From assembly GCA_018895235.1 (NCBI GenBank), contig JAHIOM010000013.1:6527-70526 (forward strand): a stretch of 64,000 nucleotides of DNA. The letters are read 5' to 3'. The position numbers were made by a program, and so were the translations under genes. Under the pieces are notes generated by a model, which saw only the letters and a list, made by a program, of their open reading frames with translations, was not told the DNA's origin and did no database searches. The stretch's first letter is position 1; each line of letters begins with the position of its first letter. Source of the DNA: Patescibacteria group bacterium (GTDB taxonomy: Bacteria > Patescibacteriota > Minisyncoccia > Minisyncoccales > Staskawiczbacteraceae). Positions 19,733 through 48,559 of the stretch are shown here, piece by piece.

Positions 19733-19800
19733 TTATAATTGGCAACGAGAGAGGAGTAAAGAAGCTTGCTTGTTTACTCCGAACGAGTGAACCAATTATA
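19733..19800. repeat. intergenic repeat element R1 (arms TTATAATTGGCAACGAG ... CGAGTGAACCAATTATA around a central 8-bp hairpin), followed by palindrome ATATCGAAT-ata-ATTCGATAT (19798-19818)
   Basis: Near-identical arms recur at 43925-43988 (R2). Related to the E-family elements at 31827, 33484, 35255, 38006. Confidence 0.5.
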
Positions 19801-19821
19801 TCGAATATAATTCGATATACC

Positions 19822-30688: not shown

Positions 30689-31315
30689 TTAAACCTTAAT
30701 CTCTTCTGATGGGCGTAAACAAACTATATTACATCCTTTCTGCACTAATTTGTGATAATGATCTCTACTAATAGCTGGCGTGGCAAAAACCACGCTGCTT
30801 GCTCTATTAGCAATGAAAATTTCGCGCAAAGCCAACAAACTAATCGGATCCCAAAGAGAAAAATCACCGCAAAGAAGAACATTGCCTCGAATTTCGGGAT
30901 AAGGAATATCTATCTGTTTGGACAAACCAAGCGATTGAGATATAAGTTTGCTACGCAGATTAATCAATTGTCGAAGAATCGGAGTTTCTCGAGGGGTTTG
31001 ATTATCACGGCAAATCTTGATTTCAAAATCTTCTCCTATAGCGAAAACCTTGGCATTTCCATGAGTTGTCAGAACTTTCCATCTACTCGGACTTAATTGG
31101 TGCAAGAAAACACAGCAAGTGTCTTTTAAATTGTGGGCGAGATTAGCAGCCAGCGACGCACTTATTTCTGAAAATTTTCCCGCTTTGTGTTTATCAACAA
31201 CCCCAACTAACAAATCAATCTGCGGACACTTTTTTCTGACAATCCGCGAAAGTGGACCAACTAAATCGGTTCGGGTTAATGGTTGCATCGCAAATCCTGT
31301 TGTTTTACCGTCCAT
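30689..31315 (-). CDS. hypothetical protein (moderately GC-rich)
   Basis: 208-aa ORF with atypical composition. Fragments (VLLCGDFS, THGNAKV) faintly resemble metallophosphoesterase motifs but occur in non-canonical order. Confidence 0.35.
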   Translation of the reverse strand: MDGKTTGFAMQPLTRTDLVGPLSRIVRKKCPQIDLLVGVVDKHKAGKFSEISASLAANLAHNLKDTCCVFLHQLSPSRWKVLTTHGNAKVFAIGEDFEIKICRDNQTPRETPILRQLINLRSKLISQSLGLSKQIDIPYPEIRGNVLLCGDFSLWDPISLLALREIFIANRASSVVFATPAISRDHYHKLVQKGCNIVCLRPSEEIKV

Positions 31316-31326
31316 GGTTTCTTCTC

Positions 31327-31593
31327 CTAAGAAACGGCCATATTGCCCAAGTTGTGCCGCACGAAAAACTTCCTCACAAAAGGAGGCGGTACATCTTTTA
31401 CTTCCCGGTTATCGCCGTTCCTTCTCTGCTTCCTCTGCAGATTGGTTGCCATCCGTCGAACATCTGACCAAGGAACACCCAAGGCCTTACCCAATGTCCT
31501 CATCTGCTGCTGGTTTTTGGGATCAACCCATAGTAAGACTTCCTGCTTTTCAGACGTGATTTTTTGAGATGATGTACTGTTGTTACCTGCCAT
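31327..31593 (-). CDS. hypothetical small protein, possibly DNA-binding
   Basis: 88 aa; the segment LGKALGVPWSDVRRMATNLQRKQ looks HTH-like. Co-directional and immediately upstream of 30689-31315. Confidence 0.3.
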   Translation of the reverse strand: MAGNNSTSSQKITSEKQEVLLWVDPKNQQQMRTLGKALGVPWSDVRRMATNLQRKQRRNGDNREVKDVPPPFVRKFFVRHNLGNMAVS

Positions 31594-31826
31594 TTCTGAA
31601 TTCCTTTCCTGATTTTGACCAGTGCCATAATCACATTTACATCCCTGTACCCCCTGAATCTACCTAGGGCGCTCTTGCTTTTTTCATTTTCTTTCCTTTC
31701 TTATCAATATTTTTTTGTGAATGAACTATGACCAACCTGAATTTTTCTATTTTATATCTTTAATAATCCTTTGTCAATTTTGAAGAACCATGATATATAA
31801 AATGTATATAGAGACCTTTAATCTAT

Positions 31827-31891
31827 ATAATTGCTCGTTCGGTCGGAAAATAAAAATAAATTTTCATTTTCCTTCCTCATTCGTAATTATG
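31827..31891 (+). repeat. E-family repeat element E1 (ATAATTGCTCGTTCGGTCGG-hairpin-CTCATTCGTAATTATG); its 3' end supplies the pth ATG
   Basis: Shares its arms with E2 (35255-35316), E3 (33484-33549) and E4 (38006-38061, reverse). Central stem GGAAAAT/ATTTTCC. Confidence 0.55.
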
Positions 31892-32470
31892 AAAATCATT
31901 GTCGGCCTAGGGAATCCAGGACAAAAATTTGAAAATACGCCCCATAATTTCGGCTTTATGGTGATTGACGCTTTTGCGGAAAAAGATAATTTTCCTGATT
32001 TTAAGGTATCCAAAAAATTTAACTCTTTAATTTCAGAGGATCGTTTGAACACAGAAAAAACAGTTTTAGCCAAACCCCAAACTTTTATGAATGAATCTGG
32101 TAAAGCCATTAAAAAAATAGTTTCGCATTACAAATTACCTCCTATTGATTTGATTATTGTCCACGACGACATTGATTTGCCCTTTGGCACAATTAAAATA
32201 GTCAAAAACCGAGGTTCTGCCGGACACAAAGGCATAGAATCAATTATTAAAGAATTAAGCAGTAAAAACTTCACCAGAATCCGATTAGGCATTAAACCAG
32301 GAAGACCTAACTCATATCAAAAAAAAGTTTCTGGTGCGAGGTTTGTCATTAAAAGGTTTAACCCAAGGGAAAAAACGATTGTTGCCGATACTATAAAGAA
32401 AACTGCTGACGCGATTGAATTTTTGGTTAAAGATGGGCTAGAAAAAGCAATGAATGAATACAACAAATAA
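31889..32470 (+). CDS. pth: peptidyl-tRNA hydrolase (the ORF opens at 31790; the likely start is ATG 31889)
   Basis: MKIIVGLGNPGQKFENTPHNFGFMVIDAFA is the canonical Pth N-terminus. Confidence 0.85.
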   Translation: MKIIVGLGNPGQKFENTPHNFGFMVIDAFAEKDNFPDFKVSKKFNSLISEDRLNTEKTVLAKPQTFMNESGKAIKKIVSHYKLPPIDLIIVHDDIDLPFGTIKIVKNRGSAGHKGIESIIKELSSKNFTRIRLGIKPGRPNSYQKKVSGARFVIKRFNPREKTIVADTIKKTADAIEFLVKDGLEKAMNEYNK

Positions 32471-32472
32471 AA

Positions 32473-33471
32473 TTAAAGCCTAGAAATTTTTTGTTTCAGC
32501 TCATGGCCGTTGCAATGTTTTAATACCCCAAAATATGACTGCAGGGTTTGGTTGAATAAATCTTTTGATATCTTGCCCTTGTCAAAATCAAGGGATTTTA
32601 ATTTTATCTTTTCCAGCATTCTCTTTTTTGTTTTTGTTCTTAAAATCCTATGATATGGGAGGTCAACGTAACCCAGAAAATCAATTCCTTGATGATGTTT
32701 TTTAATTATTACTTTACCTTTATGTAAAGACAATTTCAGTTTCTCTTTTAAGAACTCACTAATTACGGAAATAATACTTTCAAGATGTTCTCTATCACTA
32801 GTTAAGATAACGAAATCGTCGCAATAGCGGATATAATGTTTTATTCTCAAATTTTGTTTAATAAAATAATCCAATTCGTTAAGGTATATGTTGGCGAATA
32901 ATTGGCTTGTAATATTTCCTAATGGAAGGCCTTTGTCGGACAATGTTGAAAAACTTTTAATGATTTTTTCTATTAACCAAACGGCGTTTGTGTCTTTAAT
33001 TTTCTTTTTAATCAAAAAAGTCAGAATATCTTGGTCAATCGAATTAAAGAACTTTTTAATGTCGCATTTTAAGATAAAACAGGTTTTGGTTCTGTTTTTA
33101 CTGGTTTTTCTGGCGAACATCTGAAGTCGGCTGACCGCTTTATGTGTTCCTTTGGCGTTTCTACAGGAATAAGAATCGAATATGAATGATTTGTCGAAAA
33201 TAGGATACAAAATTCTGAATATGGCGTGGTGCAAAACTCTGTCTCCTACGCAGGCTTTATGGATTTTTCTAGGTTTTGGGTCGCAGATGTTAAATGATGT
33301 ATAATCAGAATGAGAATAGATTTTTATTTTTAATTCGTGATGGAGTTCAAAAATATTGTTTTCTAAATTGTATTCAAACTCCTGAACGTCTTTCTTTTTT
33401 CTTTTTCCTTTTTTAAATTCGTCCCAAGCTAAAAACAAGTTATCAAGAGAAATAATCTCTTTAAACATATT
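32473..33471 (-). CDS. diversity-generating retroelement reverse transcriptase (the ORF extends to 33579 via TTG through a poly-G tract; the likely start is Met at 33471)
   Basis: RT motifs: LFLAWDEFKKGKRKKKDVQEFEYNLENNIFELHHEL (DGR-RT-type N-terminus), KPRKIHKACVGDRVLHHAI (motifs 1-2), GLPLGNITSQLFANIYLNELD (the [I/L]GxxxSQ form of motif 4), YIRYCDDFVIL (YxDD), FLGY (motif 7). Confidence 0.85.
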   Translation of the reverse strand, partial: NMFKEIISLDNLFLAWDEFKKGKRKKKDVQEFEYNLENNIFELHHELKIKIYSHSDYTSFNICDPKPRKIHKACVGDRVLHHAIFRILYPIFDKSFIFDSYSCRNAKGTHKAVSRLQMFARKTSKNRTKTCFILKCDIKKFFNSIDQDILTFLIKKKIKDTNAVWLIEKIIKSFSTLSDKGLPLGNITSQLFANIYLNELDYFIKQNLRIKHYIRYCDDFVILTSDREHLESIISVISEFLKEKLKLSLHKGKVIIKKHHQGIDFLGYVDLPYHRILRTKTKKRMLEKIKLKSLDFDKGKISKDLFNQTLQSYFGVLKHCNGHELKQKISRL

Positions 33472-33483
33472 ATATCTCTGGAT

Positions 33484-33549
33484 ATAATTATTACGCTCGG
33501 TCGAAGAACAAAAATAAATTTTTTCTCTTCTCTCTCGCTTATAATTATG
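33484..33549 (+). repeat. E-family repeat element E3 between the RT start and avd
   Basis: ATAATTATTACGCTCGGTCGAAG...CTCGCTTATAATTATG; 60 of 66 positions shared with E4 reverse complement. Confidence 0.55.
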
Positions 33550-33567
33550 GAAAACTTTTCCTCTAAT

Positions 33568-33577
33568 CCCCCCCCCC
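33568..33577. repeat. homopolymeric C10 (G10 on the RT strand) tract 13 nt upstream of the avd TTG start
   Basis: Counted directly: ctctaatCCCCCCCCCCaac. With C10 the upstream ATG (33547-33549) reads into a TAA at 33586-33588. With C9 that ATG is in frame with avd. Confidence 0.8.
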
Positions 33578-33589
33578 AACCAGTTTAAT

Positions 33590-33919
33590 TTGCCAATTTT
33601 GCATAGAGTTTATGAATTATATAAATTATTTTACCAATATGAGCAACACCTTCCTCAAAAAGATCGCTATTGTATCGGACAAAAATGCGAAAAAATAATT
33701 TTAGATATTTTAGAACTGATTATTGGAACAATTCAGTCACCTAAAAATAGAAAACTAGAACTACTGAATGAAGCAAGCATAAAGTTAAATATTTTAAGAA
33801 TAATTATTCGTTTATCAAAAGATATAAAAGCATTAGACTTTAAAAAATATATTACCCTACAGGAAAATATAAATGAAATAGGAAGAATGCTAGGTGGCTG
33901 GATAAAATCACTAAAATAA
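33590..33919 (+). CDS. avd: Avd-like DGR accessory protein (four-helix-bundle, 23S rRNA intervening-sequence protein family); TTG start as drawn
   Basis: LPQKDRYCIGQKCEKIILDI...NEIGRMLGGWIKSLK matches the IVS-protein/Avd family (LPKeekY.LgdQlrRAa....EIGKMLnGLIksl). It is divergent from the RT and followed by the terminator hairpin AACACCCCAAATGGGGTGTT (33931-33950). Confidence 0.65.
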   Translation: MPILHRVYELYKLFYQYEQHLPQKDRYCIGQKCEKIILDILELIIGTIQSPKNRKLELLNEASIKLNILRIIIRLSKDIKALDFKKYITLQENINEIGRMLGGWIKSLK

Positions 33920-33970
33920 TCTTTAACAAAACACCCCAAATGGGGTGTTCATCTTTGATAGAGAAGGAAG

Positions 33971-34085
33971 TTCCTAACGGAGGAAAGGCCGATGTTGTCA
34001 TTGCGATTGTCATCCCAGTAGTTGTTGACATTGAGACCACTTGAGTCGAAGTTACCGATATTGACACGGTTGCCGTCCGAGTTAA
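33971..34085 (-). repeat. DGR template repeat (TR); the sense strand is minus
   Basis: 115 bp aligning colinearly with 34379-34493. Translated in the target frame it gives NSDGNRVNIGNFDSSGLNVNNYWDDNRNDNIGLSSVR, with AAC (Asn) codons at the variable positions. Confidence 0.85.
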
Positions 34086-34305
34086 GAATTTGCCCATTTT
34101 TATCCAAACCACTGAAAGTTGTCTTTATTTTAATAGAAAGATTCCTTTCTGTATTTTATTCGGGAGCAGTCTCCTAGGCGACATCTCCGCTAAAAACGGG
34201 CAAGAAGTTCAGTCTTTATTAGATTAATTCTCGCGAGGCTAAGCCGTAACCCAACCTTCATTAACGAGATATTATATTTTATCAGTTTTAAAAAGAAAAA
34301 TAAAT

Positions 34306-34334
34306 GCCCCTCGACTGCTATGCAATCGAGGGGC
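34306..34334 (-). terminator. GC-rich hairpin (GCCCCTCGA-loop-TCGAGGGGC) 45 nt downstream of VR/IMH; target-gene terminator and possible DGR homing-enhancing stem-loop
   Basis: 9-bp perfect stem followed on the minus strand by a T-rich tract. A GC-rich hairpin/cruciform downstream of VR is a known DGR feature in Bordetella phage BPP-1. Confidence 0.5.
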
Positions 34335-34371
34335 TTCAAGGGTTCAATCTTCAAACATCAAAGATTCAAGA

Positions 34372-35256
34372 CTAAACCTTCCTGACGGAGGAAAGGCCGA
34401 TGAGGCCATGGCGAGTGCCATCCCAGTAGTGGCTGACATCGAGACCACTCCAGCCGAAGCTACCGACATCGACACGGAGGCCGTCCGAGCTAATATCCGA
34501 GCAATGAACATATACTTGCTCGAATAACCGCTCGTTAGTGGCCATAAAATGACCGATAATGGTGTAAACCATTACTTGGGCAGTTGGCGTTTCCTCATCC
34601 TTGGCGAGAAGCGATTGCTGCTCATTCCAGGTTTTGGAGGTCGAGTTGCTGACTGGCGTCTTGCGGACAAGTTGCCAGCTGACCTCGCCGTGTTCTTTGG
34701 CAAACTTTTCCTGGTTATGCCAGTCCTGGCTGTAGAACAATCCTTTGTCCTGCACCTTTCCACGAATCTCGAGGATCGAGATTGGGAAGATTGCCACAAA
34801 GACATGAGTGTCCTTGCACTCCTGGAGAACGGCTTCGGAGAACGGAATCTCGGAGAGGATGGCGAGTTGCTGCTTCGTGGAATTAACCCCGAAGTGCTTG
34901 ATCGCCTCCTCGACACCGAAGAAGTTCTTGCCCATGATTTCATGGGCGCGCTTCTGAGATGTCGTAGCTTCGTAACCACCTCTCTGAATCAACCCTACCA
35001 CCTTTGTGGCAAGGTCGTTGCCCTTTGAGTCAATGACCTTCTGGGCAAGTTCGTCCGTGAGCCCCGCCTTCTCCATTTTGAGAAGAAATTCGTGCTCATT
35101 GTGCACCGAAATAGTGCGTTCATCTGCTTGGCTTACCATGGTATTCATAGCACACCTTCCTTTCTTATAAAGAACAAAAACTCGTTGCTGATTACCCGCA
35201 ACTAGGCTATTAAGCACTATGCTTAATATGACTATATTATTGCAGCTACGCTGCAT
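34372..35256 (-). CDS. DGR target (variable) protein with a C-terminal CLec-like variable region; GC-rich, no signal peptide (alternative start M37 at 35148)
   Basis: C-terminus ...YVHCSDISSDGLRVDVGSFGWSGLDVSHYWDGTRHGLIGLSSVRKV* is encoded by the VR. The VR ends 5 nt before the stop codon. Confidence 0.8.
   Translation of the reverse strand: MQRSCNNIVILSIVLNSLVAGNQQRVFVLYKKGRCAMNTMVSQADERTISVHNEHEFLLKMEKAGLTDELAQKVIDSKGNDLATKVVGLIQRGGYEATTSQKRAHEIMGKNFFGVEEAIKHFGVNSTKQQLAILSEIPFSEAVLQECKDTHVFVAIFPISILEIRGKVQDKGLFYSQDWHNQEKFAKEHGEVSWQLVRKTPVSNSTSKTWNEQQSLLAKDEETPTAQVMVYTIIGHFMATNERLFEQVYVHCSDISSDGLRVDVGSFGWSGLDVSHYWDGTRHGLIGLSSVRKV
34379..34493 (-). repeat. DGR variable repeat (VR) at the 3' end of the target gene
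   Basis: About 20 mismatches versus TR over 115 bp. About 18 lie at positions where the TR sense strand has A (T on the + strand), with substitutions to C, G or T. The IMH-like 3' end GGCCTTTCCTCCGTCAGGAA differs from the TR (..GTTAGGAA) by one base. Confidence 0.85.
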
Positions 35257-35316
35257 AATTACTCATTCGGTCGAAATGAGAACAAGTTCTCATTTCTTTC
35301 TTATTTTATAATTATA
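35255..35316 (+). repeat. E-family repeat element E2 (perfect 11-bp central hairpin GAAATGAGAAC-aa-GTTCTCATTTC) abutting the target-gene start codon
   Basis: ATAATTACTCATTCGGTCGAAATGAGAACAAGTTCTCATTTC...TATAATTATA. Confidence 0.55.
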
Positions 35317-35381
35317 ACAAATTATATTATTTATGTCAAGCTTTTGACAGAACTAACAATCGGTATTATAATTTAGGTAAA

Positions 35382-37346
35382 ATGCAACCGGCACAAAATA
35401 CCAGTCAGGTTTTAATCGTCTCAATTACCCCCTATTTTTTAGAAAAGGGGTTTTTGTGGTTTAAAGAAAATCTCAAAAAGATATTAAATGCTCAAAAGTC
35501 CCAAACATTTTTTCAAGATAATGTTTTATATTTGGAAAAAGATCAGGTTTTCAACCTGTCTCTGCTTTTAAGAAAATTGGAAGAAATGGGTTATGAAAAA
35601 GTTCTAAGGATTTCGGAACCGGGAGAATTTTCCCAGCAAGGCGGGATAATTGATGTTTTTCCTATAAATACAAAAAACGCTGTCAGATTTGATTTTTTAG
35701 GGAACAGAATTGAAACCATAGAATTATTAGATGCAGCGGTTGAAGATGAAGAAAAGGCAAAAGAAATACTAAAGAAAAAACTGAAATCCCAAAGGTTATT
35801 TTCTGATTTGAAGGGATTAAAACCCGGTGATTATTTAGTACATCTTGACCACGGCATAGGTAAATTCAATAATCTTCTGTCGCATAATAACGAAAACTAT
35901 TATCTTTTAGAATATAGCGAAGGGGATAAACTTTATGTGCCCTTGGGCCTTGAAAGAAAACTATCCCGATATGTCGGTTTTGTCGAACCGAAAGTTTCCC
36001 GCCTGGGTTCTTCTTTGTGGCAAAAAACAAAAAAGAAAATTAAAGAAGGGGCTGAAAAACTGGCAAAAGAATTGCTCGGGATTTATGCAAAAAGAGAGAT
36101 TGCTAAAAGACCTGCTTATCTGCCCAACGATGAATTTGATTCAGCAATTTCTTCAAATTTCAAATACGAAGAAACGCCAGACCAATCACAAGCAATTCAG
36201 GAAGTAATGAAAGACCTGGAAAAAACAAAACCAATGGACCGACTGGTCTGCGGCGATGTCGGATTCGGCAAAACCGAAGTCGCTTTAAGGGCAGCGGTTA
36301 AGGTTGTAAAGTCCGGCTATCAAACGGTTTTAATCGCACCAACAACAATTCTGGCTGACCAACATTTCCAGAATATTAAGAGCAGATTACAAGGATTACC
36401 AATTAAGGTTGCACTTTTAACTCGACTCCAATCGAAAAAAGAACAGAAAAAAATTATTGAAGATTTGAAAAACAATAAAGTTGATATTTTAATAGGCACG
36501 CACCGGATTTTGTCTGGCGATATTGTTCCGCTACTTTTTCAAAGGGACGAAACCGGGCTTTTGATAATTGATGATGAACAAAGGTTCGGCGTCAGACAAA
36601 AAGAAAAGTTAACGCAGTTGAGAAGCAAGATTGATATTTTGTCTTTATCGGCCACTCCCATCCCCCGCACCCTCTATCTTTCCCTCTCATCTTTAAGAGA
36701 CGTAAGTCTTATCCAAACCCCGCCCGAAGGCAGATTATCAGTTAAAACTTTTATCCTCCCTTGGTCAATAAAAATTGTTAAAATGGCAATCGAACAAGAA
36801 CTAAAACGCGGCGGCCAGGTTTATTATCTTCATAACCGAGTGGAGACAATTGATTTAACCAAAAAAGCGCTCCAAGATTTATTGCCCAATGTAAAATTTG
36901 CTATCGTTCACGGCAGAATGAGAGAAAAGGAATTAGTAAAAATAATGGATAATTTCCAACAAAAATCTATTAACGTTTTGATAGCAACAACTATTATTGA
37001 AAATGGTTTGGATATTCCAAATGTAAATACTTTAATAGTGTCTGATGCTACCCGGCTCGGATTATCCCAAGCCTATCAAATAAGGGGCAGGGTCGGCCGT
37101 TCCAATATTCAAGCTTTCGCCTACTTTTTTTATAATAAACAACTGAAAGGAAAAGCAGCTATAAGGTTGGCTGTTTTGAAAGAAGCCGAAGAATTGGGAT
37201 CTGGCTATCGTGTTGCAATGAAAGATTTGGAATTAAGAGGAGCGGGCAATATTTTGGGAAAAGAGCAGTCAGGCAGCATTAATAAAGTCGGTCTGAACTT
37301 ATATTGCCAGATGGTCGCTGAAGCGGTTGAAAAATTCAAAGAATAA
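35382..37346 (+). CDS. mfd: transcription-repair coupling factor Mfd lacking the N-terminal UvrB-homology domains
   Basis: RNAP-interacting domain (DYLVHLDHGIGKF), SF2 helicase motifs (GDVGFGKTEVALRAA, DEQRFGV, SATPIPRT), and C-terminal TRCF domain. At 654 aa it is well short of the ~1150 aa of full Mfd. Confidence 0.8.
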   Translation: MQPAQNTSQVLIVSITPYFLEKGFLWFKENLKKILNAQKSQTFFQDNVLYLEKDQVFNLSLLLRKLEEMGYEKVLRISEPGEFSQQGGIIDVFPINTKNAVRFDFLGNRIETIELLDAAVEDEEKAKEILKKKLKSQRLFSDLKGLKPGDYLVHLDHGIGKFNNLLSHNNENYYLLEYSEGDKLYVPLGLERKLSRYVGFVEPKVSRLGSSLWQKTKKKIKEGAEKLAKELLGIYAKREIAKRPAYLPNDEFDSAISSNFKYEETPDQSQAIQEVMKDLEKTKPMDRLVCGDVGFGKTEVALRAAVKVVKSGYQTVLIAPTTILADQHFQNIKSRLQGLPIKVALLTRLQSKKEQKKIIEDLKNNKVDILIGTHRILSGDIVPLLFQRDETGLLIIDDEQRFGVRQKEKLTQLRSKIDILSLSATPIPRTLYLSLSSLRDVSLIQTPPEGRLSVKTFILPWSIKIVKMAIEQELKRGGQVYYLHNRVETIDLTKKALQDLLPNVKFAIVHGRMREKELVKIMDNFQQKSINVLIATTIIENGLDIPNVNTLIVSDATRLGLSQAYQIRGRVGRSNIQAFAYFFYNKQLKGKAAIRLAVLKEAEELGSGYRVAMKDLELRGAGNILGKEQSGSINKVGLNLYCQMVAEAVEKFKE

Positions 37347-37360
37347 AAAAAACTAGCCTT

Positions 37361-37918
37361 TCAGCTAGTCGTTGGAACAGAATCTTTTTTAGGAATTGGA
37401 TTCATTTTTAAAGCATCAAAAACCGCAAGAGAAACTGAGGAAACTATTCCTTTTTTTTTGCCATTCACTTTAGCAATCATCTTTCCGCTTTCAATCCTAG
37501 CGGCTGACTCGACTTCGTCGAATTCCACCTCAATTCCGGATTCAAGGGTTAAAACATCACCGGGAACAATAAAACCATTAAACTTTACTAAAGCAATCTC
37601 TCTGGCGGCAAAAGCTTTGTTAATTAAAAGCGGAGACATTTCAGGATGTTTGCTAATAAGTACTCCGAGAAGCTGAAAAGCCATCTCTGGTATTTCAACC
37701 CCTCTCATAACGGGCATCCCTGGAATCGGTTCATGACCCTCACAAACCTCTGCCGTTACAAGAAATTCTCCAACGACTTTATTTTCCATAATAATAACTT
37801 TATCCAAAAGCAACATTCTGCCACGATGGAATAAAATTGTCATAATTTCTTCTTTATCAACAATAATTTCTTTTTTGCCAACAAAAAAATCACCAATCCA
37901 TTTAATTACTCTTTTCAT
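37361..37918 (-). CDS. FabZ/FabA-like hotdog-fold dehydratase
   Basis: ILFHRGRMLLLDKV...EGHEPIPGMPVMRGVEIPEMAFQLLGVL matches (3R)-hydroxyacyl-ACP dehydratase FabZ motifs. Confidence 0.6.
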   Translation of the reverse strand: MKRVIKWIGDFFVGKKEIIVDKEEIMTILFHRGRMLLLDKVIIMENKVVGEFLVTAEVCEGHEPIPGMPVMRGVEIPEMAFQLLGVLISKHPEMSPLLINKAFAAREIALVKFNGFIVPGDVLTLESGIEVEFDEVESAARIESGKMIAKVNGKKKGIVSSVSLAVFDALKMNPIPKKDSVPTTS

Positions 37919-38005
37919 ATTATTCTCCCATAAAAATGTTGTCTAAGAGCTGGTTTAGATTCTACATTAAAATCCTAAAATTTCAAGGGTTCTGGTCTTT
38001 TGTGC

Positions 38006-38061
38006 TATAATTGCAAGCGAGGGAGGAGAAGAAAAAAACATTTTTATTCTCCGACCGAGTG
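38006..38061 (-). repeat. E-family repeat element E4 (reverse orientation) upstream of dprA
   Basis: Reverse complement CATAATTGTGCACTCGGTCGGAGAATAAAAATG...CTCGCTTGCAATTATAG. Central stem GGAGAA/TTCTCC. Confidence 0.55.
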
Positions 38062-38097
38062 CACAATTATGTGGTAATAACCACAATAATTATTAGA

Positions 38098-43924: not shown

Positions 43925-43988
43925 TTATAATTGGCAACGAGCAAGGAATGAAAATTTATTTTAATTCCGAGCGAGTGAACCAATTATA
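43925..43988. repeat. repeat element R2 (same arms as R1; central hairpin GGAAT...ATTCC) ending 5 nt before the mazG-like start codon
   Basis: TTATAATTGGCAACGAGCAAGGAATGAAAATTTATTTTAATTCCGAGCGAGTGAACCAATTATA. Confidence 0.5.
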
Positions 43989-44006
43989 TAAATATTGAAG
44001 ATATTT

Positions 44007-44534
44007 CTATTTTTTAAATTTTAATAATTTACTAATTAACCAGCCGGAAAAAATACCGACCACTGCTCCGGCTAAAATATCCAATGGCCAATGTACTCCG
44101 ACGAATATTCTGCTTGTGGAAACCAGAAAAGCACCCGCAAAAAAGAGAACACCAACTTTTTTATTATACAAATACACCACCATTGCTAAACCAAAAGTAA
44201 AAGAAGCGTGACCAGAGGGGAAAGATTGTTGGTTTACTTTATCTATCAGTAAATTAATATTGCTATCTATAAATGGTCTTAGGCGCGGTTTAAACAAACG
44301 AATTAGCCCCGTAATAACAAACCTGGCCGTTAAAGCCGAGGATAAAGCAATAAAAATTATTTTCCAGTTTTTTCTTGATTTAAGTAAAAACAAGAATAAA
44401 GCTGCTATCATCAGATACACGAAATATTTTGCGAAGAATACGCCCAAAATATCAAGCCACTCCCATTTGAAAGCAAGCTGGTTGATTAATTGGAATAATT
44501 GGTAGTCTAAATTCTTAATAATGTCTAAAATCAT
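44007..44534 (-). CDS. PAP2-family membrane phosphatase
   Basis: PAP2 motifs KPRLRPF...PSGHASFTFG...SRIFVGVHWPLDILAG. Confidence 0.75.
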   Translation of the reverse strand: MILDIIKNLDYQLFQLINQLAFKWEWLDILGVFFAKYFVYLMIAALFLFLLKSRKNWKIIFIALSSALTARFVITGLIRLFKPRLRPFIDSNINLLIDKVNQQSFPSGHASFTFGLAMVVYLYNKKVGVLFFAGAFLVSTSRIFVGVHWPLDILAGAVVGIFSGWLISKLLKFKK

Positions 44535-47206: not shown

Positions 47207-47915
47207 CTTTTAAAAACTTAGAACATTTAATTATATCCCCGGGATTGCCGAAGTCCAACCATCTATCGTCAATTTTGACTACTTTTACTTTTTTATCTTT
47301 AGCTAAAAGAGTAATCACATCGGTAATCTCGTATTCGCCGCGAGGAGACTTCTTGATTTTAGGAAGTTTATCAAAGACCTCGGGAGTAAATTTATACATT
47401 CCTGTGTTGATTAAATTTCCGACATATTTTTTTGGCTTCTCAATAATCTCTTTAAGAAACCCATTATCAGTAATCAGGATGCCGTATTTTTCGGGATTTT
47501 CGTGAACCAAACCCGCCACGTAATTATAATTATCGTCCTTTGTCATCTCTTTTAAATCTCTGACGGAATATAAATTGTCGCCACAAACAAATAAAAACTG
47601 TTTTCCTTTTAGAATATCTTTAGTGCACATTAAAGGGCATGCCGTTCCATATATTTTTTCTTTTGGACCCAAAATATCAAATTGGTTAACAACCGTTGCT
47701 TTATAGCCGTATTCTTTTAAAAACTGTTTCATTAAATCACTGGCGTGGCCAACAACTAGAATAATTTCTTTGTAGCCGGCTTGCAGAAGATTGTCTAAAA
47801 CATACGCTAAAAAAGGTTTTCTATTAACCTTTATCAGATGTTTTGACTTATTTTTTGTAAGGTGCAGCATCCGGGCACCCTGCCCTGCCGCAGCCACAAT
47901 AACTGTTTTAATCAT
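47172..47915 (-). CDS. sugar-phosphate nucleotidyltransferase (NTP_transferase family)
   Basis: MIKTVIVAAAGQGARMLHLTKNKSKHLIKV...EIILVVGH. Confidence 0.75.
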   Translation of the reverse strand: MIKTVIVAAAGQGARMLHLTKNKSKHLIKVNRKPFLAYVLDNLLQAGYKEIILVVGHASDLMKQFLKEYGYKATVVNQFDILGPKEKIYGTACPLMCTKDILKGKQFLFVCGDNLYSVRDLKEMTKDDNYNYVAGLVHENPEKYGILITDNGFLKEIIEKPKKYVGNLINTGMYKFTPEVFDKLPKIKKSPRGEYEITDVITLLAKDKKVKVVKIDDRWLDFGNPGDIIKCSKFLKGENNYCQKRKS

Positions 47916-47983
47916 AACTATGAGTGAGGAAGAAATAAAAATTAATTTTTATTTAGACCGAACGATTAGTTATATAAATTACG

Positions 47984-48559
47984 TTAATTTCTATTAACTA
48001 AATTGAATGCCTTTTTATTTAATTCTAAATATTTTATAGGGACGATTTTCTTGATTGCCTTTAAAATTGAATTGGCTTTCAAGGGAATTATTTTTTTAAA
48101 TATACAATATCCCAAAAGATAAACCCCGCTAACCACTCCATTCTGCAATTCTTTTTTGCAAATTTCCGATGCGGGAATTAAGTAAAGGCGCTTTTTTAAT
48201 AGAGATTTTATTTTCTGCTCGATTTTTTCGCGACTAAATCCGCCCCGATAAAGAACATAATCATTATTTACTGCAAAGATGGTTTTTGAGTGAGAAAGGG
48301 GAATTTTTCTTGCACCCTCTTGAGTTTCCAAACTTATTACCAAATCCGCCTTCTTTCCATCAATTAACGGACTGTATATTTTTTTTCCGAACCTGATGTG
48401 GGTTTCAACGCTTCCGCCTCTTTGAGAAAGCCCGTGCAGTTCAGATGTTTTTACATCATAACCTTCCGATAGAGCGGCTTCAGCTAAAATCTGAGTTAAA
48501 GTAATTAACCCCTGACCGCCTACACCGGCAATTATAATATTAAAAGAATTTTTAACCAT
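47984..48559 (-). CDS. iorB: indolepyruvate/2-oxoacid:ferredoxin oxidoreductase gamma/beta-type subunit (IorB-like)
   Basis: IIIAGVGGQGLITLTQILAEAALSEGYDVKTSELHGLSQRGGSVETHIRFG is the POR gamma-domain signature. Confidence 0.7.
   Translation of the reverse strand: MVKNSFNIIIAGVGGQGLITLTQILAEAALSEGYDVKTSELHGLSQRGGSVETHIRFGKKIYSPLIDGKKADLVISLETQEGARKIPLSHSKTIFAVNNDYVLYRGGFSREKIEQKIKSLLKKRLYLIPASEICKKELQNGVVSGVYLLGYCIFKKIIPLKANSILKAIKKIVPIKYLELNKKAFNLVNRN

Follow-up and report, generated by a model that had tools for sequence, protein, structure and literature searches.

Probable insertion of a small, dispersed palindromic repeat between promoters and start codons in a Patescibacteria genome

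The 64-kb stretch of a Patescibacteria group bacterium genome analysed here (contig JAHIOM010000013.1, 64,000 nucleotides; hereafter the window) contains seven copies of a non-coding unit of 75–82 nt, which consists of a small hairpin, termed P0, followed by a 61–65-nt imperfect palindrome, termed the core. The repeat family is real and statistically solid; no description of it was found in the literature searched, and to that extent the family is new. We consider it likely that the units are small dispersed palindromic repeats of the kind represented by repetitive extragenic palindromes (REPs) and miniature inverted-repeat transposable elements (MITEs), inserted between host promoter and start codon. 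An earlier note on this DNA, made from the sequence alone, had proposed a promoter/leader module feeding near-leaderless mRNAs, a MITE-like element with intergenic preference, or recombination sites involved in the mobility of a diversity-generating retroelement (DGR). The MITE-like option is best supported, by empty sites, a patchy distribution, copies at least 90% identical in unrelated flanks, and the occurrence of tandem and nested copies.

A search of the window for ATAATT and AATTAT spaced 40–90 nt apart returned exactly six mutually similar sequences, which are the six copies already noticed; the core of each is bounded by ATAATT and AATTAT. Brought into the same orientation, they read ATAATT, 6–7 nt, TCGNTCGR, a variable hairpin, YCTYCCTCRYT, 3–4 nt and AATTAT. 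A covariance model built from 73 copies and run over the whole 64 kb with filters off gave these six 60.2–79.3 bits and disclosed a new seventh copy, with its core at 47914–47973 on the minus strand, at 59.7 bits (E ≤ 1e-10 for all seven). The next-best matches were the opposite strands of the same loci, at no more than 25.8 bits, followed by noise at no more than 15.8 bits. The density is thus about one copy per 9 kb (7 per 64 kb). The units are arranged as follows.

R1: 19735–19816, minus strand; core 19735–19799; P0 ATCGAAT-TAT-ATTCGAT at about 19798–19818, overlapping or abutting the core; between comEC and a DUF6938 gene; 79.3 bits.
E1: 31810–31890, plus strand; weak P0 31810–31826, core 31827–31890; the pth ATG (31889–31891) shares the last 2 nt of the core; 77.6 bits.
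E3: 33471–33548, plus strand; P0 ATATC-TCTG-GATAT 33472–33485, core 33484–33548; between the DGR reverse transcriptase gene (minus strand, ATG at 33468) and avd (33590); 75.4 bits.
E2: 35241–35315, plus strand; P0 GCAGC-TAC-GCTGC 35242–35254, core 35255–35315; right edge of the DGR insertion; 60.2 bits.
E4: 38007–38085, minus strand; core 38007–38070, P0 GTGGT-AATA-ACCAC 38071–38084; inside the −10 region of the dprA promoter, with direct repeats ATAATT at 38007–38012 and 38086–38091; 72 bits.
R2: 43927–44008, minus strand; core 43927–43987, P0 AAATAT-CTTCA-ATATTT 43990–44006; its first two bases are the AG of the TAG stop (44007–44009) of the upstream PAP2 gene, and mazG starts 6 nt past the unit; 72.5 bits.
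Seventh unit: 47914–47992, minus strand; core 47914–47973, P0 AAATTA-ACG-TAATTT 47976–47990; the NTP-transferase ATG (47915–47913) overlaps the unit end, and the POR-gamma stop (47986–47984) lies within P0; 59.7 bits.

The outer stem of the seventh copy reads ATAACT/AGTTAT instead of the usual ATAATT/AATTAT, a double compensatory change, and its last two bases supply the AT of the NTP-transferase start codon. R1 and R2 had been described as mere palindromic relatives of the E copies. They have the same asymmetric arms and are full members of the family, their more palindromic appearance being due only to a longer outer stem (TTGG/CCAA). Of the placements given in the earlier note, that of the pth ATG at the end of E1 is correct, and R2 does lie just before mazG, at 6 rather than 5 nt. 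E4 had been rightly recognised as a copy, but its end had been set at 38061, 9 nt short.

The flanking-gene comparison that the earlier note had suggested revealed empty orthologous sites at three loci in relatives (L-numbers below are labels of fetched loci from related genomes). At dprA, the empty site of L288 reads ...TTTCAAGGG...GTGTTATGATT|ACTGAG-ATG, with TGTTATGATT|ACTGAG-ATG at the position of E4. The filled site in the window reads ...TTTCAAGGG...GTGCTATAATT, followed by 79 nt comprising E4 and its P0, and then ATTAGA-ATG. Taking the unit out of the sequence restores TGcTATAAT, 7 nt and the ATG, and the host promoter TTTCAA...TGcTATAAT is kept in L288. At the junction of POR-gamma and the NTP-transferase gene, the unit is absent from L079, which bears the repeat family at other positions, and the two genes overlap (..AAT GAT TAA.. 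/ ATG ATT AAA); in the window the 79-nt unit separates them, so that the POR-gamma stop now falls within P0.

The third locus is pth, for which 80 orthologous loci were compared (47–66% identity, 332 kb in total). A unit lies upstream in the window, L295 and L246 and is absent from about 75 orthologs, in which TTGTCAA-N17-(TGn)TATAAT stands 6–9 nt before the ATG, a leaderless arrangement. In the window, the host −10 box TATAAA (31796–31801) is followed by 6 nt, by AT (31808–31809), by the 81-nt unit and then by G AAA ATC, which places the insertion inside the start codon (AT|G). The copy in L295 lies 8 nt further into pth, with ATGATTAT on either side and the inner strand altered to ATAATCA. 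Evidently the start of pth (ATG ATT ATA ATA ATT) mimics the target and constitutes a hot spot. The empty sites at the three loci imply that the whole 75–82-nt unit is the insertion, and in the filled/empty comparisons the unit alone differs between genomes, the neighbouring genes being unchanged. As a separate observation, an open reading frame starting at ATG 31790 reads in frame and without a stop through E1 into pth (31790–32470, 33 extra codons). This read-through is probably fortuitous, and gene callers could pick the wrong start.

In most copies P0 stands directly 5' of ATAATT. Its stem comprises 5–11 bp whose sequence differs among copies, its loops include UUCG, UGCG and GAA, and ..AT|AG or ..AT|T stands in front of it. 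Of 91 left flanks, 31 contain the motif ATAG(A/G), as against 7 of 92 mirror flanks. An origin of this motif from stop codons was considered and dropped, as it forms the stop of the upstream gene in only 9 of the 31 copies. Gene starts and stops adjoin the core at its 3' end. In 17 copies AATTAT and the ATG overlap, and in about 13 others the two are 3–16 nt apart. At the 5' end, because P0 occupies that side, start and stop codons always keep a distance of at least about 10–15 nt.

The left boundary could be placed in 40 copies. The left flank ends in AT in all 40, usually as WWTTAT, and in 19 of 38 its end is a −10-like hexamer. As the unit itself ends in AATTAT, insertion rebuilds the split TATAAT box or ATG. 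In three cases the flanking repeats were longer: 6 nt at E4, 8 nt in L295 and, with an indel, about 8 nt at the seventh copy. A guide–target model, in which left flank, inner strand and right end would all covary, was also considered; such covariation is anecdotal (L295 and the seventh copy) and non-significant over the 40 copies.

Genes of the window almost entirely lack Shine-Dalgarno sites, and several have TATAAT 6–11 nt before the ATG. In this genome and its relatives (L236–L315; in the window, for example, 35344–35384 and the region of 29575–29568), (TGn)TATAAT is found 6–9 nt before the ATG, and these organisms appear to use leaderless or near-leaderless mRNAs. The few genes with Shine-Dalgarno-like sites sit in or beside the DGR (hypothetical genes at 30689–31593, the target gene and the FabA-like gene). 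In reverse-context copies, a host extended −10 element is fused to the AATTAT end of the unit. Of all 92 copies, 17 have TGnT|ATAATT on the other strand, E4 and E2 included, where about 3–5 would be expected. A perfect host promoter reads into E4. At E2, a perfect minus-strand promoter, TTGACA-17-TGtTATAAT (35339–35311), reads into the unit, and its −10 box is the unit's AATTAT end. Since the units lie between promoter and start codon, they must belong to the leader. On our reading, transcription starts from the promoters of the host, perhaps with a contribution from an internal TATAAT at the junction of P0 and core, and the leader is then formed by the unit. The earlier promoter/leader option therefore holds as far as the leader is concerned, but the promoters are the host's, as seen at dprA and at pth (TATAAA, 6 nt, ATG). 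Nor do the units feed near-leaderless mRNAs; they convert a leaderless arrangement into a leadered one.

A different explanation would make the unit a host cis-regulatory module, a compact cassette by which the cell drives and stabilises the mRNAs downstream, with P0 as a terminator, TATAAT as the −10 box, transcription starting at the conserved C-R, and a stabilising 5' hairpin that ends at the AUG; alternatively, it could be a dedicated RNA-processing site (RNase III or RNase Y type) at which leaderless 5'-AUG ends are formed anew. The internal TATAAT is intact in 26 of 29 forward-context, gene-abutting copies versus 8 of 18 reverse-context copies, C13-R14 is conserved at the expected start distance, and the 17 ATG overlaps at the unit end would fit such a module. 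So would the copies before highly expressed genes (tuf, rplB/C/J/Q) and a tRNA, the preservation of fold and arms in diverged copies, and the rarity of convergent gene contexts (2 of 47). Several observations argue to the contrary. No −35 element or TG was found upstream of the internal TATAAT, a region occupied by the variable P0; the −35 and TGn elements seen near units belong to host promoters outside them and are conserved at empty orthologous sites. The −10 consensus is lost through compensatory changes in the outer stem (the seventh copy has TATAAC), conservation is the same in either orientation, and the same genes are expressed without a unit in most relatives. Because a module cannot appear at many loci without being copied, regulation would be at most a secondary, domesticated role, and as a full explanation we regard it as unlikely. 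Two related candidates were rejected: ATAGAAAT as a −35 box, whose spacing to TATAAT varies between 15 and 24 nt, and an intrinsic terminator, for which a U-tract is absent on both sides and convergent contexts are rare.

The genome-wide search and covariance model proposed in the earlier note yielded further copies. A scan of one genome per species, using a pattern of the two ends and TCGNTCGRA only, gave at least 114 listed loci. Among those listed, about 70 are from metagenome-assembled genomes (MAGs) of Patescibacteria, and all of these have the pyrimidine-rich 3' arm YCTCCCTCRYT, which was outside the scan pattern, and a paired centre. Neither feature is present in some 40 listed matches from other phyla. 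The labels of the positive genomes are Staskawiczbacteria, Nealsonbacteria, 'Parcubacteria/Patescibacteria group', one Nomurabacteria and one Komeilibacteria, and in many cases 'uncultured Candidatus Saccharibacteria' (binchicken MAGs; among them L003, L005, L009–L011 and L018). The last label is unreliable, because proteins of these MAGs are 55–72% identical to Nealsonbacteria-like or Patescibacteria-group orthologs. We accordingly dropped the idea of a deeply conserved element throughout the candidate phyla radiation (CPR), Saccharibacteria included; the one genuine Saccharimonadales match was a false positive. The family has so far been found only in a subgroup of Paceibacteria, that is, in Staskawiczbacteria- and Nealsonbacteria-like CPR genomes. 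Its density is patchy, with 5 model matches in the 332 kb of the 80 Pth loci compared with the 7 in the window.

Copies behave as dispersed repeats. Pairs that are at least 90% identical mostly stand in dissimilar flanks, also between genomes; R1 and L024, for instance, are 91% identical and lie upstream of different genes. Tandem pairs occur in L114, L090, L022, L053, L084 and L089, and nested copies in L088 (1736–1839, directly before the tuf start codon) and L003 (1496–1606), the two long copies, in whose apical stem a second arm set (UCGGUCGUCG / CUCCCUUCCUC) is enclosed. Copies of either orientation are present and obtain similar model scores, and orthologous genes carry a copy either way round. 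Elsewhere the flanked genes include tuf, rplB, rplC, rplJ, rplQ, smpB, thyA, folA, tmk, cysS, argS, the gene for RNase J, glycosyltransferase genes and tRNA-Tyr; about 100 copies in other genomes flank such housekeeping genes. Within single MAGs, identical copies also recur on separate contigs, where they are embedded in a larger repeat of about 250–330 bp. This larger repeat (L002:1350–1640, L039:480–760, and L068, L106 and L115 from the Staskawiczbacteria MAGs MHPA01 and MHOT01) has inverted ends of its own of about 25 bp (TAGACCTG.TG..TATTAAGGATT) and one palindrome copy in its centre; it could be another mobile element, of a composite kind, or else encode a small RNA. An association with phages was dropped, since an arms-only pattern search of IMG/VR viral contigs gave only random-looking matches in which the hairpin was absent.

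The fold of the core is well supported. Its outer stem, ATAATTNN/NNAATTAT, forms terminal inverted repeats, of which 2 positions covary and 6 are near-invariant, an invariance partly forced by the scan pattern, which included the ends. The model found 94 matches in the fetched loci, 92 of them distinct. Across these 92 copies, standard pairs fill 92.8% of cells, as against 78% after shuffling and 44–55% with slid partners, and both-side changes occur at 20 of 24 pairs. The compensatory changes noticed earlier in the central stems are thereby borne out in the window and in the copies from related genomes. RNAalifold, applied to a MAFFT alignment not fitted to the model, recovered the outer stem, the GG/CC pairs and the base of the apical stem. 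T16, C17, T20 and C21 stand opposite T, C, Y and T in at least 89 of the 92 copies. Because the arms are non-complementary, the stem alternates two paired bases with 2×2 pyrimidine–pyrimidine mismatches, three times over; on the opposite strand these mismatches become three tandem G.A/A.G pairs. Beyond them, the apical stem covaries freely and is variable in length and sequence. A perfectly palindromic variant without the conserved mismatches was seen at L038:267–330, where both arms are of the 5' type (CACTCGGTCGAAA ... TTTCGACCGAGTG) and the model scores on both strands. A small peptide encoded on the reverse strand was considered and dropped, as its frame relative to the conserved arms differs between copies.

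Structural conservation of this kind could also point to independent small structured RNA genes, or to a riboswitch-like regulator acting through the conserved internal loops. The strong covariation and the near-invariant loops would suit either, as would the predicted folding of the purine-arm strand, which is the better one in 79 of 92 copies (−19.7 versus −16.0 kcal/mol). Nevertheless, the downstream genes have no common pathway, the orientation to genes is inconsistent, and neither strand shows a bias in wobble pairs. A search of Rfam gave no hit overlapping the copies at E up to 10, its only matches in the window being two tRNAs. As the units moreover behave as insertions, we regard this explanation as very improbable.

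The position of E copies near the DGR raised the question of a link between the two. In about 45 relatives pth is directly followed by mfd, adjacent or overlapping, with a FabA-like gene and dprA further on. In the window, a 2.9-kb DGR cassette (32471–35381) is inserted between pth and mfd, with the following parts.

32473–33468, minus strand: reverse transcriptase gene.
33590–33919: avd.
33971–34085: template repeat (TR).
End at 34372: DGR target gene.
34379–34493: variable repeat (VR), 83% identical to the TR.

Recombination sites, similar to integron attC or Xer sites, that bracket and mobilise cassettes, the DGR modules in particular, would account for E3 inside the cassette and E2 on its right edge. 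They would also fit the attC-like architecture of the repeat (conserved ends and unpaired positions, variable paired centre) and the copy that follows an avd homologue in L097. However, the left edge of the cassette (32470/32473) is without a copy, and most copies, including the roughly 100 in other genomes, flank single housekeeping genes in both orientations. The attC cores RYYYAAC/GTTRRRY are absent, the ends being ATAATT/AATTAT; no integrase or cassette array was seen, and filled and empty sites differ by the unit rather than by the neighbouring genes. This explanation is largely refuted, and we give it next to no credence. That the E copies delimit three blocks (pth and reverse transcriptase; avd, TR and target; mfd and fabZ), as the earlier note put it, is accurate as a description, but not as a sign of a role specific to the DGR. 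Likewise, E2 overlaps the start of the DGR target only for the longest open reading frame (ATG 35256) and not for the called gene, which starts at 35148. The proximity of repeat and DGR is incidental: the region is simply rich in promoters and AT-rich intergenic sites. Within it, mfd has acquired a perfect promoter of its own, TTGACA-17-TATAAT (35344–35372), and ten consecutive C residues lie downstream of E3 and ahead of avd (33568–33577), where they could make the avd leader prone to slippage. The avd homologue of L097 (68–476) is 41% identical to the Avd of the window, and the forward repeat copy 14 nt downstream of it is the sole other DGR-linked copy seen.

We postulate the following course of events. 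The preferred target ..TTAT would be found mostly in −10 boxes, start codons and stop/start overlaps of leaderless genes without Shine-Dalgarno sites, and this would account for the copies next to start codons. Once the unit is in place, transcription from the host promoter would turn it into a self-folding 5' leader or an intercistronic hairpin, and folding would keep the inserted bases out of the way. As the unit separates the promoter, or an upstream stop, from the start codon, loss of the fold would probably be selected against, which would explain why copies that are old and diverged show compensatory changes. For the conserved arms with their mismatches, the most likely role is that of a recognition structure for the mobilising enzyme, which, by analogy with IS200/IS605 and the REP-associated tyrosine transposases (RAYTs), may act on folded single-stranded DNA. 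Alternatively or additionally, the arms could possibly be recognised by an RNA-processing factor.

A more specific version holds that the unit is more than a tolerated parasite: in organisms whose ribosomes depend on leaderless initiation without Shine-Dalgarno sites, the hairpin would be a specific substrate, so that a dedicated nuclease or RNA-binding protein might trim the leader to a 5'-AUG or let ribosomes bypass it. It draws on the tandem mismatches, which are invariant and become three tandem G.A pairs on the purine strand, and on the start codon lying exactly at the base of the hairpin. In a variant of guide-directed spread, the internal ATAATT strand would pick complementary ..AATTAT targets as folded single-stranded DNA. 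We consider this version quite unlikely; if true, translation initiation would be linked to a mobile hairpin by a post-transcriptional step peculiar to the CPR.

The proposal of a mobile repeat has to be weighed against several findings that count against it. In tblastn searches of 1.23 Mb of incomplete-genome fragments, IS200, IS608 and YafM (RAYT) queries gave nothing below E = 0.2; neither a transposase or other mobilising gene nor an autonomous element with matching ends was seen among these fragments. The left flank matches the unit's own right end at 2.65 of 6 positions and the right ends of other copies at 2.60 of 6, so that a duplication longer than AT is not demonstrable in general. 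The window showed no copy in decay, and although copies of one genome have diverged by 25–40%, they keep their fold and arm sequences, which argues for selection at each locus and for some host-level role beyond selfish spread. Wobble-type mismatches (53 G.U versus 61 A.C) show no strand preference, and splitting them by gene context gave only a weak trend, towards the transcribed strand. An attempt to choose the strand from them was consequently dropped; they single out neither strand, and neither DNA nor RNA, as the selected form. Relatives were covered as genome fragments, which makes copy numbers and clade limits rough.

CPR genomes are regarded as extremely streamlined, and in the literature searched we found no comparable dispersed repeats for them. 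Here a repeat sits at the most sensitive spot, between −10 box and start codon or within the latter (tuf, rplB/C, pth, dprA), with its fold intact. Since the repeat can supply start and stop codons, annotators should be aware of it when genes are called. The filled sites also represent natural experiments on leaderless-type translation without Shine-Dalgarno sites in which an 80-nt structured leader has been added. For the enzymology of mobile elements, the defined structure, with regular 2×2 mismatches and a covarying stem, should lead to the enzyme that recognises it. As for the DGR, an apparent link between the repeat and DGR mobility is removed.

Among known systems, integron attC sites likewise combine conserved ends and unpaired positions with a structure-conserved centre of variable length, and the next gene follows just after the site. 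The units described here differ in lacking R''/R' cores and extrahelical bases, in having symmetric mismatches, and in occurring without array or integrase, in both orientations, beside housekeeping genes. The palindrome-associated transposable elements (PATEs) derived from IS200/IS605 may resemble the units, in mechanism only: they have two hairpins with conserved irregularities and insert 3' of a short A/T-rich motif (WWTTAT| here) without a clear duplication. In addition, the inner ATAATT can pair with the left flank ..AATTAT or with the unit's own right end, recalling the pairing of guide and cleavage site. In contrast to IS200/IS605 ends, the units have a terminal inverted repeat; TnpA was not found with the IS200, IS608 and YafM queries in the 1.23 Mb of fragments, and covariation of left flank and right end is absent overall.

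The Correia elements or Neisseria miniature insertion sequences (NEMIS), which are MITEs, are also small palindromes that insert at an A/T dinucleotide near genes, join −10 boxes with their ends and, once transcribed, form long hairpins in mRNAs. The Correia hairpins serve as RNase III substrates. There is no sequence similarity, and Correia elements measure 100–155 bp, with 26-bp terminal repeats, a TA duplication and a site for integration host factor (IHF), whereas here only the outer 8 bp are inverted, the arms are non-complementary and no duplication beyond AT can be demonstrated. With MITEs derived from DDE transposons, the units share terminal inverted repeats, small size, the lack of coding capacity, multiple copies, and presence or absence at orthologous sites.

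REPs and bacterial interspersed mosaic elements (BIMEs) of Enterobacteria and Pseudomonas are mobilised by RAYT, a Y1 HUH transposase. They are about 20–40 nt long, compared with the 61–65-nt palindrome and second hairpin found here, and carry a GTAG-type 5' tetranucleotide, which is absent from the units; the latter instead have ATAATT as the conserved motif at their ends, on the 5' side of which P0 and an AG or T are found. The three regular 2×2 pyrimidine mismatches are a further difference, and RAYT was not found in the same fragments with the same queries. REPs mostly lie at the 3' ends of genes, the units at 5' ends, at the −10 box or ATG of leaderless genes. Both, however, are short, non-coding, imperfect palindromes of high copy number in intergenic DNA, which occur in both orientations and occasionally in tandem clusters, are co-transcribed with their neighbours, and share conserved stem mismatches and conservation within a clade.

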